Shown: positions 5,701 to 36,903 of the stretch, piece by piece
Numbering within the stretch: position 1 is the stretch's first letter
How the letters are laid out: the number at the start of each line of letters is the position of its first letter
Origin: a virus
Taxonomy: Duplodnaviria; Heunggongvirae; Uroviricota; Caudoviricetes
Virus record (IMG/VR): IMGVR_UViG_2713896790_000012
Length of the DNA stretch: 38,455 nucleotides
Direction: 5' to 3' (one strand)
Program-made: the position numbers and the translations under genes
Notes under the pieces: model-generated
Told to the model about the DNA's origin: nothing
Database searches by the model: none
Seen by the model: the letters and a program-made list of their open reading frames with translations, nothing else

Positions 5701-5947
5701 ATTTCTTTAATTCAGAATAGCGTCGACCGACAGTATCAATTGCGGCACCAACTGGATCAATAGCTGCTTTTAATTTTGCGAGCGCGTTCTTCTCATCTTC
5801 TGTTGCCTTAGTCACTTTCCCTGCGCTATTTGCAGCAGTTTCCCCAGCCTGCGTCATTTTGACTAATGAGGAGGCCAGATTGTCAGCATTATTTTTCGCT
5901 CCAGTGCTATCAATAATTATTGCGAGACGCGAGGTTTGCTCTGCCAT
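2714..5947 (-). CDS. Tail tape measure protein (H-like)
   Basis: 1077-aa ORF, long coiled-coil-rich N-terminal half, hydrophobic Gly-rich segment ([21 protein letters not shown]), position between G-T chaperone and M. Confidence 0.85.
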
Positions 5948-5960
5948 TCATTAAAACTCC

Positions 5961-5990
5961 TGACAACAAAAAACCCACCGAAGTGGGTTT
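5961..5990 (-). terminator. Intrinsic-terminator-like hairpin plus U-tract 14-45 nt upstream of the tape measure start
   Basis: Minus strand reads AAACCCAC TTCG GTGGGTTT followed by TTTTGTTGTC, immediately before the SD/ATG of the tape measure gene. Confidence 0.35.
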
Positions 5991-6110
5991 CAGGCGACAT
6001 AATAGTAGATATAGCGATTACGAGGCCACGCAATGCTTTTCTCCAGGAGCATCATCGATTTAATTAAAGACACCATCACATCTCTGTAACAGAGTGTACG
6101 TAATTAACAA

Positions 6111-6880
6111 CTACACACACTGCTCCTGAAAATACTGGTCATCCAGTGCAAAGATCACTGCTTCAAATTCATCGCGCTCAATCAATACCGGATGAGTGGC
6201 TAAATATTCATTTATCTCTGTCAGAGATAAAGGCAAAGGCACCCCAGTCATTCCAGCATAACGTCGGGCACGGGATATTACCGAATAGGCGTACAACAAT
6301 TCCTTAAGCACCGGGTCTATTTCTGGTTCCGGTATCGGTGGCAACCTGAGTTTTTCTCGCTTCCATCTTGCCTTTTCACCCTTTTCTCCCCCGAACTCCG
6401 ATAACCACCGCTGGGCGGCTATGGCTTTTTTATCGTATCCTGCTTCTGCTGCTCTTTACCCTGGGCGATGCTGGCTGCTTCTGCAAGGATCTGCCAGTAC
6501 AACTCCGGATTCTGCTTAAGCAGCGCGATCCCTCGTTCTGGCGTATATTCCAGTGCAACCTCAACACCATCAACCAGTTCACCAACCCCTTTCCAGTCTT
6601 TCAGCAGATAACGAGCAGCATTATCAATGAGTAAATCATCAACAGAATCCACCTCGGAAACCTTTGCAATATCAAACTCCTTCGTTCCGACGTGCAAACT
6701 GGCATCCATTTTCTCAATGTGGCGACGGATTAATGCATTACGGGAGCGATACTGATCGTTATCGCTGCTTGCCACCAACAGTTTTAACCCGTCTACAGGT
6801 TTTAAGTCCTTCATTGGGGTAAACCAGCGTTCACCACCGATGATAATTTTCTGATTAAGAATAAACATCCATAACCTCAT
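6111..6880 (-). CDS. G-T tail assembly chaperone fusion made by programmed -1 frameshift
   Basis: Slippery A_AAA_AAG on minus strand (plus coords 6425-6431) one codon before the G stop; the -1 frame is open from there to a stop at 6111 (..KAIAAQRWLSEFGGEKGEKARWKREKLRLPPIPEPEIDPVLKELL..). Confidence 0.6.
6419..6880 (-). CDS. Tail assembly chaperone G
   Basis: 153-aa ORF between major tail and tape measure genes; ends ...QDTIKKP* with a slippery heptamer directly before the stop. Confidence 0.65.
   Translation of the reverse strand: MRLWMFILNQKIIIGGERWFTPMKDLKPVDGLKLLVASSDNDQYRSRNALIRRHIEKMDASLHVGTKEFDIAKVSEVDSVDDLLIDNAARYLLKDWKGVGELVDGVEVALEYTPERGIALLKQNPELYWQILAEAASIAQGKEQQKQDTIKKP
6425..6431 (-). 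other. Slippery heptanucleotide A_AAA_AAG (recoding site)
   Basis: Minus-strand ...GAT ACG ATA AAA AAG CCA TAG read directly from the sequence. Confidence 0.6.
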
Positions 6881-6928
6881 TCAATGCGCCCCCCTGTAGT
6901 GCAGTACCACAGGGGGAATAACGGAAAA

Positions 6929-7891
6929 TCAACTAATCGCCTCAGCACTGGCTTTTGCGATCACGGCAGCCGGGGAGGCTTTTTTTCTGGTTATCGTAGG
7001 TGCTTCATCTGCTGCGGTAATGCTCAATTGAACCTGGATAATGTCGGTATTACCCCCATCAGGCCATTCACCTGACATCTGAACCTTCGGGAAACTGAAA
7101 GTGTATGCCCCCTCTCCATTCGAAAGCGTGAAGCTGAACGGAACTGTTTCTCCAGTCAGTGTTTTACTCCAGATTTCCCACGCGGCTTTAGACCATGAAA
7201 GCGTCACCGTACCGGACGGTGTAAAAGTAGTCGGAATATTTGCTCCTGCATAAGGCGAGCCAGTCCCGATACAACGCTGTGTCTGGAGTTTGTTATCGAA
7301 CTGAATATCAAAACTGTCGATACAAAAACCGTTACCTCCGGCAACACCATTCAGGCTTACTGCTGAAACCTCCTTAAACGAATAACGTAGCTTTCCTGCA
7401 CTATCCACAGGTTCGCCTTTGATAAAATTCGTATCATCGGCCTTTGATTCCCAGTCCAGCCCGGCAAAGGTTACGGTCGCCGTAATATCGCCGTCGTTAG
7501 GGATCTGCATTTTCCATGAGCCAACCTGCGCTCCTCTGACAACAGAGGCAATTCCGACATCGGACGCATAGGTCGCCAGAGAAAATGTTATTCGCTCATT
7601 CCCCATTGTCAGAGAATCACCTGACCATTCCGCGCCGAAACAGGATGCAAGAAAATCATCATGTTGACCCCAGCGAAATTTGGTACCAACATCACCGCCA
7701 ACATCCACAGTGCCAGGCGTCGCCCCCTGAGCCATCCGGGAGCCACCAATCTCATTATTTTCGCCTTTATTCTGGGTGGGTTTTACTCCCCAGCTTGTGC
7801 GTTTTAATAAACTCCAGTCACCACTTGCTGGTGTGGTGCCTGCAACTGTCTCCCGGATAAATGCCGAGATAACCTTTGCACCTGAACTCAC
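6929..7891 (-). CDS. Major tail tube protein (V-like), probably with a C-terminal Ig-like domain
   Basis: 320-aa ORF upstream of the G/G-T chaperone pair; Thr/Ser/Gly-rich beta-type composition; canonical position. Confidence 0.7.
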   Translation of the reverse strand: MSSGAKVISAFIRETVAGTTPASGDWSLLKRTSWGVKPTQNKGENNEIGGSRMAQGATPGTVDVGGDVGTKFRWGQHDDFLASCFGAEWSGDSLTMGNERITFSLATYASDVGIASVVRGAQVGSWKMQIPNDGDITATVTFAGLDWESKADDTNFIKGEPVDSAGKLRYSFKEVSAVSLNGVAGGNGFCIDSFDIQFDNKLQTQRCIGTGSPYAGANIPTTFTPSGTVTLSWSKAAWEIWSKTLTGETVPFSFTLSNGEGAYTFSFPKVQMSGEWPDGGNTDIIQVQLSITAADEAPTITRKKASPAAVIAKASAEAIS

Positions 7892-18769: not shown

Positions 18770-20245
18770 TTAGGAGCGCCAAAAAAAACCTGAAAACAAT
18801 ATAATAACAGGATAAATTTCAAGGCGACCAAGAATCATAGCTATGCACATTAAATATTTTGCAATGTCATTAAGCACTCCGAATGACGATGCAGTAGCCC
18901 CAAAACCTAATCCCATATTATTAATACATGCAGCCACTGTTGCAAATGATGTAAGAAAATCATATCCCATACCATTTAACACCAGTATAAAAAACACCGT
19001 GAAGAGAGTATAAAGAAAAAAGAAACTCCATACAGACCTCATTACACGATCTGTAACTATCTTCCCTCCTACATTTACACTCAACAACGCTCTGGGATGA
19101 GAAAGCTGGTTTATCTCGTGTTTGCTTTGTTTGAAAAGTATAAGAAATCGAAGTGACTTAATTCCACCACAAGTTGAACCTATACATCCCCCAAAGAAAC
19201 TTGACAACAGCAAAAACACTATCGTGTGCGTGGGCCAGTTTGCGTAATCCTGCGTAGCTAAACCATTATCAGTGAGCATGGAGCTGGCAAGAAAAAACGA
19301 ATGAATAAAACTTCCAGGCAAGTCATACATACCTATATGCCAGACCTGGAAAGAGGTAACAATGATCACCCCTAAGGCTATTAACAGAAAGAAACGAAGT
19401 TCAATATCTCTGATTAAAGGTTTTAACGTTTTCCTGCTAATAACAATATACCAAAGGGTGAAGTTGAAAGCCGATAGCAGGGAAAAAGAACCAGCCACCA
19501 GCTCAACCAAATAGTTATTAAAATATCCGATACTCTCGCTATGAGTTGAGAAACCACCAAGCGAAACTGTGGATATCCCGTGACAAATAGCATCAAACAA
19601 AGGCATTCCTGCAAGTCTATAACAGACAATACAAGCAATACCTAATAAAGAATAAGTTATCCAAAGTGTCCGTGACGTATCGGCCAGGCGGGGAGTAAGT
19701 TTGTCATCCTTAAATGGCCCTGGCATTTCTGACTGATAAAGCTTTGCACCACCAATACCCAATAATGGCAATACAGCAACCGCCAGAACAATAACTCCTA
19801 AGCCACCTATAAAATTTAACTGTGACCGATAGTACAAATATGCCCGAGGTAATGAACTAACATCATCAATTACAGTTGCTCCTGTTGTTGTTATTCCAGA
19901 AACCCCTTCAAATAGAGCATCAATAAACGTTAAATTAAGTTCTGAGTCAATCCATAAAGGGAATGCACTAATAACAGAAAACAAAATCCAAAACATTACA
20001 ATTATAATAAACCCATCACGGGTACGTAATTGAATACCAGATTTCTTAGTTGTATACCACGCTCCGCCACCAATGCAAAAAAATATAACGAAAGTTATAA
20101 AGAAAACGAACAGGCTTTTTTCTTTATAAAACAATGCTACAACCATTGGTGGCAACATTGAAAGACTATAGAGCCAAACCAGGAACCCACACATATGAGT
20201 AACAACTCTTACATGAGATGTATTCATATCTAAATATTCTTTCAA
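18770..20245 (-). CDS. trkG: TrkH/TrkG-family potassium uptake membrane protein
   Basis: 491-aa polytopic membrane protein with repeated selectivity-filter-like glycine motifs (GITTTGATV, GLGVIVLA, TVSLGGFST, NNMGLGFGA); AT-rich; same position as trkG in K-12 Rac. Confidence 0.8.
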   Translation of the reverse strand: MKEYLDMNTSHVRVVTHMCGFLVWLYSLSMLPPMVVALFYKEKSLFVFFITFVIFFCIGGGAWYTTKKSGIQLRTRDGFIIIVMFWILFSVISAFPLWIDSELNLTFIDALFEGVSGITTTGATVIDDVSSLPRAYLYYRSQLNFIGGLGVIVLAVAVLPLLGIGGAKLYQSEMPGPFKDDKLTPRLADTSRTLWITYSLLGIACIVCYRLAGMPLFDAICHGISTVSLGGFSTHSESIGYFNNYLVELVAGSFSLLSAFNFTLWYIVISRKTLKPLIRDIELRFFLLIALGVIIVTSFQVWHIGMYDLPGSFIHSFFLASSMLTDNGLATQDYANWPTHTIVFLLLSSFFGGCIGSTCGGIKSLRFLILFKQSKHEINQLSHPRALLSVNVGGKIVTDRVMRSVWSFFFLYTLFTVFFILVLNGMGYDFLTSFATVAACINNMGLGFGATASSFGVLNDIAKYLMCIAMILGRLEIYPVIILFSGFFWRS

Positions 20246-22396: not shown

Positions 22397-22471
<75 letters not shown>

Positions 22472-22474
22472 ATA

Positions 22475-22550
<76 letters not shown>

Positions 22551-23736: not shown

Positions 23737-24335
23737 TACGCAAACTCCAGTAGCTGCGCGGCCACATTTTCGACTTGTTCCGGAGAGGAAAATTTACGGA
23801 ACAGAATCCAGTTCCACAGCACATTCAGTACAGATTTATAAACCTGCTGAAACTCGGTTTCGTCCATATTCGCAAACGCGATGGATTTCGCCCGACGCCC
23901 ACGACTACCATCAGGATAAAAATGCTCGGTGTAAAATCCGGCCTGAATGGTTACCCACTCGCGGAAAGCGTCAAATGATTTGAGCAATGCCATATCCCGG
24001 GTTCTGCGTGTCGCAACGGTATTCAGATATTGTTCCGCGGCATCACTCAGAGCTGGCGTATGTTCCCTGCCTACTGATTCACACAGGTAATCAACGAAGC
24101 CGAACACCATTTCTCGTTCGCGAGGTGTGATCGCCCCACCGACCGGAGTCCAGTAATCGAATCCCAGTTGCAGGAGTTTGAAAAAACGCTTGTGGAATGC
24201 GTAGTTACGCACACGCTTAAAGTCTGCGTGTATCCACTCACCTATTTTGATTTGATGCAGAAAATCGCAACTCTCCGGCGTCGCCGGGAGAAGTAAACCA
24301 GAAGAAGTTTGTTTGACCAGTTGTATATGCGCCAT
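23736..24335 (-). CDS. Conserved lambdoid nin-region protein, function unknown
   Basis: 199-aa ORF co-oriented with and overlapping the next gene; family uncertain. Confidence 0.45.
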   Translation of the reverse strand: MAHIQLVKQTSSGLLLPATPESCDFLHQIKIGEWIHADFKRVRNYAFHKRFFKLLQLGFDYWTPVGGAITPREREMVFGFVDYLCESVGREHTPALSDAAEQYLNTVATRRTRDMALLKSFDAFREWVTIQAGFYTEHFYPDGSRGRRAKSIAFANMDETEFQQVYKSVLNVLWNWILFRKFSSPEQVENVAAQLLEFA

Positions 24336-24608
24336 TTCTCAATCTCTCGATGGCGCAGTGCAGCAGATGCCAGTTGTTCAGGCTGACGTATGAAGTATAA
24401 ATAAACTGGCTCCAGTGTAAAGTCCCCACCTTAATGGAATAAAAACCAAACAACAGATTGCCGGGATAAAAACAACGCTTATTATTAAAAGCGGTTAAAC
24501 AAATTAAATTTTAATGTTATGCAAATCTACCAGATCACCATAATATCTCATTTGAAAACCACTGAAATAACAATCCTATCAAGATCAATCATATTAAGGT
24601 GAGTAAAT

Positions 24609-24695
24609 ATGGAAAACAACAAATCTGCACATTACGCTCCTTTTTTATCTGTAATACTTTTTGTTTTATGCTGTGCGTGGGCATTATTTTTATAA
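24609..24695 (+). CDS. Candidate 28-aa hydrophobic small protein
   Basis: ATG at 24609 preceded by AAGGTGAG SD; encodes MENNKSAHYAPFLSVILFVLCCAWALFL*; below the ORF-track size cutoff. Confidence 0.3.
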   Translation: MENNKSAHYAPFLSVILFVLCCAWALFL

Positions 24696-24801
24696 AAATA
24701 TTTACAGATAAAATAAACTCGCCAAAACTGGTTAAGTGTGGGTGCGTTGAGGATGCATAATACATCAGAGGTGGCGAGGGATTTCTCCCTCGCCCGGTCT
24801 C

Positions 24802-24909
24802 TTACTCCTCAGGTTCGTAAGCTGTGAAGACAGCGACCTCCGTCTGCCCGGTTCGGATTCGTACCTCGCAGAGGTCTTTCCTCGTTACCAGTGCCGTCAC
24901 TATGACGGT
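24802..24909 (-). CDS. Hok/Gef-family type I toxin, C-terminal 35 codons; N-terminus hidden in N gap
   Basis: Minus-strand translation from 24909: TVIVTALVTRKDLCEVRIRTGQTEVAVFTAYEPEE* (stop 24802-24804) matches remembered Gef/HokC (...VVAALVTRKDLCEVHIRTGQTEVAVFTAYESE). Confidence 0.75.
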   Translation of the reverse strand, partial: TVIVTALVTRKDLCEVRIRTGQTEVAVFTAYEPEE

Positions 24910-24959
24910 NNNNNNNNNNNNNNNNNNNNNNNNNNNNNNNNNNNNNNNNNNNNNNNNNN
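24910..24959. other. Assembly gap (50 N) covering the 5' end of the hok-like gene
   Basis: Run of N read directly. Confidence 0.99.
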
Positions 24960-25128
24960 CAGATTAATGTTAAGCGTCTTGCAGGACGCGTAATGTTAAC
25001 TGGGGCTTTTCTCTATCTGCCTTTTGGTGTTCATGCCTGAGGCAGATAGCCTCAAGCACCCGCAGCAATTTTACTTAACTCCCGCTACCTCGCCAATATG
25101 AAATCAATAAGAAAGGTGCTCCATAAAA

Positions 25129-25815
25129 TCACTCCTTCTCTTCTTTACCGTAGTGGAGTTGACCAATTTTGATAAGAGGGCGTCCCTGAGATTTGCGGTG
25201 TAGATTGGTATCGCGCAGAGAATACACACAGCCACAATATTCCTGCTGATAGAATTTTTCGCGCTTGCTGATTTCAATCATGCGGGACGAGCCGCCCTGC
25301 TTGCGCCAGTTATAATCCCAGTACACCATGCCCGGATAATGCGCGACGGCTCGCCGCCCACAGTCGTTAACCTGCTGCATATTTTTCCAGCGTGAAATGC
25401 CCAGTGAACTGCTGATCACACTGAAACCATTTTCAGCAGCGTACAGCGCTGTCCGCTCAAAACGCATGTCAAAACACATGGTACAACGGATCCCCCTCTC
25501 GGGCTCCCATTCCATTCCTTTGGCACGTTCAAACCAGTTGTCTGTGTCGTAATCAGCATCAATAAATGGCACGCCGTGTTGTTCAGCAAAGCGAATATTC
25601 TCATCCTTACGAATTAAATACTCTTTCTGAGGATGAATGTTCGGGTTGTAGAAAAAGATGGTATAGTCGATTCCCGAGGCCTGAAGCGCCTCCATCACTT
25701 CACCGGAACATGGAGCACAGCAAGAGTGCAGTAGTAGTTTGTTTGCCCCGTTTGGGAGCTCCAATTTAGGCCGTTTGAAATCAGCAATAGTCATAAATAT
25801 TTTTATTGGGGTCAT
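25129..25815 (-). CDS. QueH-like (DUF208) putative epoxyqueuosine reductase homolog
   Basis: N-terminal [14 protein letters not shown] and C-terminal YCGCVYSL cysteine motifs, about 220 aa, consistent with remembered DUF208/QueH pattern; start codon uncertain (25815 or 25794). Confidence 0.5.
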
Positions 25816-25978
25816 GAAAATAGCACAGAGTGTAGCATCAGAGCAGGGCTATCGGGAATAGATGTCTAAATCTGGTAATATCTGCTTTTGACACAAAGCA
25901 GACAACCACGCTAGCTCAATCCTGTGCCGTGAAAATGTCAATTCACATCTGAACTAATGCTCTTTAATCGAGTAACGT

Positions 25979-26410
25979 CTATAAATAACGAAAATTTCTC
26001 TGATAAAATGCCAGTATGCGCTGCATAACTTCGCTCTTCCGGCACTCACAGCAAATTATGTTTTGGTGCCTGTCATAACGACGTATTTCTCCGTCAGGTA
26101 ATGACCAGATAAGGTCCGGATCAACCACAGATGGTTTCTTCACCTTTGCCCTAGATAGTTTTTTGCGGGCATTTTGCCAGTCCTTACGAGCCTGTTCAGA
26201 CGGGAATAACCCGTAGCCAGAGTTGTATACATCGCCACTGGCAACCAGCTCTCTGGCGAGAACGCTCATCAGATATCTTGTCGCACCTGTCTTGGCTTCC
26301 AGTTGCCGTAACGTCTCGCGCCCACTCCGGCGTACTAGCTCAACAACCTGTCCCTTGATTTTTTCCCGCTCTTCTTGTGTAAATACTTTTGCCATAAGCG
26401 CCTCCGGCAA
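25979..26410 (-). CDS. Hypothetical early-region protein (N-terminal wHTH-like, C-terminal CCEC motif)
   Basis: 143-aa ORF in the early operon; no family recognised. Confidence 0.45.
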   Translation of the reverse strand: MPEALMAKVFTQEEREKIKGQVVELVRRSGRETLRQLEAKTGATRYLMSVLARELVASGDVYNSGYGLFPSEQARKDWQNARKKLSRAKVKKPSVVDPDLIWSLPDGEIRRYDRHQNIICCECRKSEVMQRILAFYQRNFRYL

Positions 26411-36527: not shown

Positions 36528-36722
36528 ATGCGGTATGAAAAAGTCAAACCATGCCCTTTTTGTGGTTGTCCATCAGTAACGGTGAAAGCCATTTCAGGAT
36601 ATTACCGCGCGAAGTGTAACGGATGCGAATCCCGAACCGGCTATGGTGGAAGTGAAAAAGAAGCACTCGAACGATGGAATAAACGAACCACTGGAAATAA
36701 TAATGGAGGTGTTCATGTATAA
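36528..36722 (+). CDS. ralR: Restriction alleviation protein Lar/RalR
   Basis: MRYEKVKPCPFCGCPSVTVKAISGYYRAKCNGCESRTGYGGSEKEALERWNKRTTGNNNGGVHV* matches remembered Lar; start chosen at second ATG (better SD). Confidence 0.8.
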   Translation: MRYEKVKPCPFCGCPSVTVKAISGYYRAKCNGCESRTGYGGSEKEALERWNKRTTGNNNGGVHV

Positions 36723-36903
36723 AATTACCGCCACTATTGAAAAGGAAGGTGGCACTCCTACTAACTGGACAAGGTACTCAAAAACAAAATTAACCAAATC
36801 AGAATGCGAAAAAATGCTCTCAGGTAAAAAAGAAGCAGGCGTTTCCAGAGAGCAGAAAGTAAAACTGATAAATTTTAATTGCGAGAAACTTCAGTCGTCG
36901 TGA
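36715..36903 (+). CDS. ydaC: YdaC-like small protein
   Basis: MYKITATIEKEGGTPTNWTRYSKTKLTKSECEKMLSGKKEAGVSREQKVKLINFNCEKLQSS*; ATG overlaps ralR 3' end by 8 nt; an upstream alternative start exists at 36643. Confidence 0.5.
   Translation: MYKITATIEKEGGTPTNWTRYSKTKLTKSECEKMLSGKKEAGVSREQKVKLINFNCEKLQSS

Follow-up and report, generated by a model that had tools for sequence, protein, structure and literature searches.

The locus considered here raises the question of why a lambdoid prophage of E. coli should carry an enzyme for the last step of queuosine synthesis, a step for which the host is already equipped. Tgt puts preQ1 at position 34 of tRNA-Asp, tRNA-Asn, tRNA-His and tRNA-Tyr, and E. 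coli has both tgt and queA, so that oQ-tRNA is made; the bacterium cannot make vitamin B12 and needs BtuB-mediated uptake to obtain it. Epoxyqueuosine, the product of QueA, is reduced to queuosine by either QueG or QueH (PMC5372724), and in E. coli this last step is cobalamin-dependent, at least as Frey et al. 1988 are cited in PMC4646009, QueG being one of only four cobamide-dependent enzymes in the organism (PMC11841063). A second reductase brought in by a prophage could, in principle, serve the tRNA of the host, the multiplication of the phage, the modification of phage DNA or no selected purpose whatever, and it is between these readings that we attempt to decide, using the whole stretch of viral DNA analysed (38,455 nucleotides, hereafter the window) together with related prophages, phages and chromosomes.

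The gene itself lies on the minus strand of the window, within an open reading frame that the original prediction had assigned to the DUF208/QueH family:

25129..25815, minus strand: open reading frame of 228 aa (228 codons).
25129..25794, minus strand: likely queH coding sequence, 221 aa, from Met8 of the 228-aa frame through the TGA stop, as indicated by the full-profile PF02677 match, the RefSeq start in APEC O1 and the starts of cellular orthologues.
25795..25815, minus strand: in-frame upstream extension of 7 codons, probably 5' UTR and not coding; its ATG (25815-25813) is ATT in the O7:H15 allele, and it is absent from chromosomal orthologues.

The family assignment is fully borne out. 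The Pfam search which had been proposed as its test matched PF02677 (QueH, formerly DUF208) from the first to the 174th of its 175 profile positions, scoring 220.6 bits (E=1.9e-65), against a curated cut-off of 23.5 bits, and the protein also matches the sequence of the solved QueH of Thermotoga maritima (7lc5, E=5e-22). An AlphaFold2 model, built on 12 homologues and with a mean pLDDT of 75, returned 7lc7/7lc5 as the top Foldseek matches (TM 0.85 on the target, rmsd 2.8 A, E about 1e-12), followed by TtuA, LarE and TilS, distantly related enzymes of the PP-loop/adenine-nucleotide-hydrolase fold. The frame is thereby confirmed as a full-length QueH. Its start is a separate matter, since the residue equivalent to Met8 is the start both in the RefSeq annotation and in all cellular orthologues compared, whereas the ATG at 25815 is not conserved, so that translation probably begins at Met8 (25794); an open reading frame does span 25129-25815, as had been predicted, and it is only the upstream start then given to it that probably fails to hold. 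No Shine-Dalgarno sequence was evident before either candidate start (25815 or 25794).

Both cysteine motifs on which the original prediction relied are present, LHSCCAPCS at residues 29-37 and YCGC at residues 193-196 of the 228-aa frame, as is a CTMC at residues 111-114, and all seven of the cysteines concerned (C32, C33, C36, C111, C114, C194 and C196 in the same numbering) are invariant in the 12 homologues of the QueH alignment, which includes sequences from Erwinia, Photorhabdus, Providencia, Proteus, Pantoea, Serratia, Lysobacter and others. In pairwise alignment C9/C10, the CxxC and the C-terminal CGC of the T. maritima enzyme correspond to C32/C33, C111/C114 and C194/C196, while the position of its Asp13 is occupied by Cys36. 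This replacement is no peculiarity of the phage protein, being the choice of the family majority: CCAPC occurs in 120 of 120 close homologues, and among the 113 motif-bearing representatives found in the 150 best 50%-identity cluster representatives, the Asp13 position is Cys in 109 and Asp in 3. The deposited structures of the T. maritima mutants C9S and D13N show that these two positions matter. Together with the Asp13/Cys position, the conserved cysteines (CC, CxxC and CxC) are what we take to bind a [4Fe-4S] cluster and an adjacent iron, following Li et al. 2021. The window protein thus shares with T. maritima QueH (PDB 7LC5, 7LC7, 9DEU; PF02677, IPR003828; EC 1.17.99.6) both the fold and the CC/CxxC/CxC cysteines, but is only about 30% identical to it, has Cys in place of Asp13 and carries about 20 extra residues at each end, extensions which are also found in the gammaproteobacterial orthologues.

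The window as a whole represents a lambdoid prophage of the Rac-like kind. For the most part it is collinear with the prophage that E. coli APEC O1 carries next to ttcA, and the segments that align are 84-99.96% identical, mostly above 96%. Its Rac-like character is marked by recE/recT, by trkG (18770-20245) and by the RalA RNA. The queH gene is co-oriented with the early-right genes; upstream lie a DUF1376 (YdaU-like) gene, a DnaC/IstB-like ATPase gene, DUF1627 and DUF977, and downstream a hok/sok module followed by DUF1367, DUF1364 and a DUF1133/Q-like antiterminator gene. The placement in an early, nin-like region, as first proposed, is accordingly correct, queH standing between the replication module and the hok/sok, DUF1367, DUF1364 and Q-like genes. 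The features to which these comparisons refer are:

25129..25850, minus strand: extent of the queH cassette common to different lambdoid prophages, from allele conservation.
24802-25061, minus strand: hok/sok type I toxin-antitoxin module, directly downstream of queH, with the Rfam sok match at 24961-25061.
36721-36899, minus strand: RalA small RNA, type I antitoxin of RalR (Lar), a full-length Rfam match of 215 bits.

The 5' part of the hok frame is hidden by the letters N at 24910-24959, but its C-terminal part (…TVIVTALVTRKDLCEVRIRTGQTEVAVFTAYEPEE) can be read.

An identical slot is occupied by queH in five prophages and one phage, the carriers including the Qin-like prophage of ST131, prophages of O157:H7, O7:H15 and APEC O1, and the isolated phage HannyBb. 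The stretch conserved between the alleles reaches from about 55 nt before the start codon to a few bases past the stop codon, and the genes that follow differ from one element to the next, being hokD, an NgoMIV-type restriction-modification pair, DUF1971 or Doc, which is the behaviour of a cargo region. In the O157:H7 Z1812 prophage, for example, a DNA cytosine methyltransferase and an NgoMIV-family restriction endonuclease (5872-7882 in the record of that prophage) come after queH and replace hok/sok. The slot after queH seems to gather addiction and defence modules.

How widely this cargo is spread was assessed in 5426 complete E. coli genomes, of which 994 (~18%) contain queH, at 1016 places, 3 of them on plasmids; among the rows sampled, these copies are annotated 'epoxyqueuosine reductase QueH'. 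In 973 of the 994 genomes queH directly adjoins the phage DUF977 gene. Modules of the DUF977 type are themselves far more numerous (6488 places in 4099 genomes) and about one in six is accompanied by queH, so that queH is best described as optional cargo. The chromosomal queG, by comparison, is found in 5425 of the 5426 genomes, which upholds the earlier statement that QueG is E. coli's own enzyme, and which means that queH is always an addition, never a replacement, and encodes a redundant enzyme. On the viral side, 191 contigs of IMG/VR encode a relative, and the 80 matches listed are essentially identical to the window gene; HannyBb, whose queH is annotated 'hypothetical protein', is the only isolated phage confirmed as a carrier, most other matches in phage collections being short unannotated gut contigs or records left unexamined. 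One apparent carrier, 'Acinetobacter phage MD-2021a' (CAKLQH020000001.1, 328 kb), was rejected as a mislabelled bacterial chromosome contig, containing soxR, cynX, tadA and a LysR gene; the QueH homologue on that contig is 78% identical and is annotated 'putative prophage protein'.

The nearest relatives of the prophage gene point to its origin. They are the chromosomal QueH proteins of other Enterobacterales, at 78-90% protein identity, and the window protein falls in the same 90%-identity cluster as the chromosomal QueH of several Enterobacter species. These cellular genes lie in core-chromosome neighbourhoods, in contrast to the lambdoid prophage setting of the window gene:

Erwinia: queH between purL and a two-component system/glnB/hmp/glyA.
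Providencia: queH beside tmcA and purC.
Photorhabdus: queH in a chromosomal setting.
Citrobacter/Klebsiella-like and Enterobacter-like: queH beside LysR and acetyltransferase genes.

Four prophage and phage alleles form a tight group, differing from one another at 10-34% of synonymous and 0-2% of non-synonymous sites, with dN/dS of 0.02-0.05. Between these alleles and the nearest chromosomal genes synonymous differences are saturated (pS at least 0.71), and the capture must then be old, while the non-synonymous distance is 0.05-0.06, as compared with 0.04 between two chromosomal orthologues. During its carriage by phages queH is evidently under strong purifying selection, as judged from these alignments, and its protein has evolved no faster than cellular QueH. 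The low dN/dS and the absence of acceleration speak for a function that has stayed the same, and tell against decay as well as neofunctionalisation.

The cassette may have been captured together with the means of its own expression. The element in question is:

25829..25837, minus strand: candidate extended -10 element TGCTACACT, lying 34 nt before the start codon, from allele and orthologue conservation.

TGCTACACT is invariant in all six of the prophage and phage alleles, even where the sequence further upstream diverges, and chromosomal orthologues have TGCTACAAT, TGCTAAAAT or TGCTACACT at the matching distance from their start codons. The chromosomal genes of Enterobacter, Citrobacter koseri, Klebsiella oxytoca/aerogenes, Erwinia, Providencia and Photorhabdus start at a codon equivalent to that of the window gene and, like it, have a TGnTAnAnT box upstream at a similar spacing. 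Since the box is common to the cellular orthologues, we infer that the cassette brings with it a cellular promoter, a putative promoter of its own which could be used in the lysogen. A simple -35/-10 promoter scan did not call the TGCTACACT site, and an Rfam search of 25700-26000 at permissive E-value returned no riboswitch, of the preQ1 or any other class, upstream of queH. A hairpin at 25881-25902, after DUF977, was considered as a terminator and dropped, as it is not conserved in the ST131 allele. At the other end, the sequence downstream of the stop codon is not conserved between alleles, and no terminator-like site directly follows it, the only one called in 24300-26100 lying about 640 nt further downstream. 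Among the marks by which a moron is recognised, queH accordingly shows a fixed slot in some but not all related prophages, and lacks a terminator of its own.

Taken together, these observations make it quite probable that the window carries a functional, canonical QueH, captured with its promoter and borne as moron cargo, which acts on host tRNA as a B12-free backup of QueG. On this reading a cellular queH would have been captured long ago, with its own extended -10 promoter, from a chromosome of the Enterobacteriaceae, and would now be passed on by lambdoid prophages as a moron placed immediately after the replication module. The prophage enzyme, iron-sulfur-dependent and independent of cobalamin, would reduce epoxyqueuosine-34 to queuosine-34 in the tRNA-Asp, tRNA-Asn, tRNA-His and tRNA-Tyr of the host; when cobalamin is present it would be redundant to the B12-dependent QueG, and when cobalamin is lacking it would become the sole route to mature queuosine. 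Family, fold, conserved metal-ligand cysteines, purifying selection, distribution and context are what the analysis demonstrates; that the gene is expressed in lysogens, that its product works on the tRNA of the host and that this pays when B12 is limiting are inferred. The accessory tRNA-modification function originally envisaged is likewise consistent with a prophage-borne gene of the QueH family. That enzymes of this family can stand in for QueG has some precedent: Zallot et al. 2017 are said to have restored queuosine in an E. coli queG mutant with duf208/queH genes, and reportedly described Acinetobacter baylyi with functional QueG and QueH together. Coexistence of the two enzymes has also been reported in streptococci (PMC12632869). 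QueG catalyses the same reaction on the same tRNA substrates and coexists with QueH in every queH-carrying E. coli, yet the two enzymes are not homologous. QueG depends on cobalamin (PMC4646009), and its gene is a chromosomal one that is universal in E. coli, unlike the window-type queH, which is prophage-borne and present in 18% of the genomes.

An alternative raised at the outset sees QueH diverted from tRNA, with 7-deazaguanine bases of the phage DNA as its new target. The incorporation of such bases into phage DNA is established (PMC6884629), the systems responsible being likewise phage-carried and drawing on the queuosine/deazaguanine enzyme repertoire, and the prophage does possess other genes for the modification of nucleic acids, as well as tRNA genes:

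22397-22550, minus strand: tRNA-Gly(UCC) and tRNA-Thr(UGU), downstream of the Q-like antiterminator gene.
17841-18632, minus strand: ParB_N protein, with an additional PADLOC match of its N-terminal half, to a type II methyltransferase profile (E=5.7e-37).
16916-17869, minus strand: TET-associated glycosyltransferase (TAGT; PF20691, E=6.5e-35).

The two tRNAs and the ParB/glycosyltransferase pair, which had been cited as supporting context, carry less weight than was implied: Thr(UGU) and Gly(UCC) are not substrates for queuosine, and the ParB/glycosyltransferase pair is unrelated to 7-deazaguanine, TAGT belonging to chemistry of the cytosine/5hmC type. The ParB_N and TAGT genes overlap (16916-18632) and lie between trkG and the gene for the small terminase subunit; no TET/JBP dioxygenase was seen in the window, and the pair may be regarded as a candidate DNA-hypermodification module unrelated to queuosine. 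The enzymes which define the phage 7-deazaguanine systems, DpdA together with the preQ0-synthesis enzymes FolE, QueD, QueE plus QueC, are absent from this prophage: no DpdA/TGT-like transglycosylase was found in the annotated gene set of the nearly identical APEC O1 prophage, among the window frames of at least 250 aa, all of which are accounted for, or by Pfam, and neither FolE, QueD, QueE, QueC nor QueA is annotated in the APEC O1 prophage or in the sampled queH neighbourhoods. Moreover, the epoxide on which QueH acts is made only by QueA, on tRNA-bound preQ1, and the window protein has diverged no further than chromosomal orthologues have from each other. The suggested turn to DNA chemistry is not supported, and we give it next to no credence. 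In the viruses covered by a 2019 survey of deazaguanine genes, no homologue of QueA, QueG or QueH came to light (PMC6884629).

Three further alternatives were weighed. Sharing the orientation of the replication and nin-like genes, placed within the early-right transcription unit and with no terminator-like site at its end, queH might be transcribed mainly after induction, yielding more queuosine for the translation of phage late genes; a review records that queuosine rises during infection by a Shewanella phage (PMC13191261), and in the late structural genes of the window NAU makes up 71% of the Tyr/His/Asn/Asp codons, as against 57% in a host sample. This bias is not specific to queuosine, however, because the Phe, Cys and Ser-AGY codons shift equally; we have therefore rejected NAU richness as a sign of phage need, as it equals that of codon families without queuosine tRNAs and simply follows the lower GC3 (0.45 as against 0.58). 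As, in addition, the host has its own supply of oQ or Q, the cassette bears the apparent promoter of a cellular gene and most related prophages do without queH, a service mainly to the phage appears unlikely. The cargo slot, in which hok/sok, Doc and an NgoMIV-type restriction-modification system are also housed, could instead hint at some other role of the QueH fold in vivo, such as protection from a defence or toxin that targets tRNA or is based on deazaguanine, but a PADLOC search with QueH matched no defence system, the sampled neighbourhoods contain no conserved partner gene, and the protein shows no accelerated evolution, all of which renders such a role very improbable. That queH should be a non-functional or decaying passenger without a selected role would accord with its redundancy to queG, with its variable slot beside toxin-antitoxin and restriction-modification genes, and with the about 10 of 994 genomes that have partial copies only; an intact frame in 984 of the 994, the retention of all conserved motif cysteines (the putative metal ligands) and the low dN/dS in the face of synonymous differences at up to 34% of sites make this exceedingly improbable.

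A cobalamin-independent backup of QueG, acting on host tRNA, remains the preferred reading. As to what in all this is new, the identity of the gene as QueH is already known, and to this extent the finding is less novel than the original prediction implied: the exact 221-aa protein is the RefSeq entry 'MULTISPECIES: epoxyqueuosine reductase QueH [Enterobacteriaceae]', recorded for at least 1000 contigs. A search of NCBIfam with the window protein matched no model, so that the RefSeq name must stem from another rule. Some resources on the phage side lag behind, PHROG 3217, which contains the window protein, being described as of 'unknown function', HannyBb retaining its 'hypothetical protein', and the viral survey (PMC6884629) being without QueH; a full-text literature search combining QueH or epoxyqueuosine with prophage found no paper discussing prophage-borne QueH in E. 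coli. Its carriage by prophages is, in our view, mildly interesting and open to test.

For the host, the possible consequence is a lysogenic conversion of the tRNA epitranscriptome, in which queH prophages free the full synthesis of queuosine from the uptake of B12, a proposal that we advance tentatively. We know of no phenotype that separates oQ-tRNA from Q-tRNA, so that any selective benefit is putative. If the proposal is true, lysogens in niches poor in B12, or deprived of BtuB, would still have Q-tRNA in place of oQ-tRNA, and queH would be a phage-delivered fitness trait in ~18% of the complete E. coli genomes, those of ST131 and O157:H7 strains among them. Should the prophage QueH be active, a sizeable fraction of E. 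coli strains would be able to finish queuosine without vitamin B12, which would bear on studies of tRNA modification in B12-free media, and the gene would provide a clean example of a tRNA-modification enzyme delivered by a phage.
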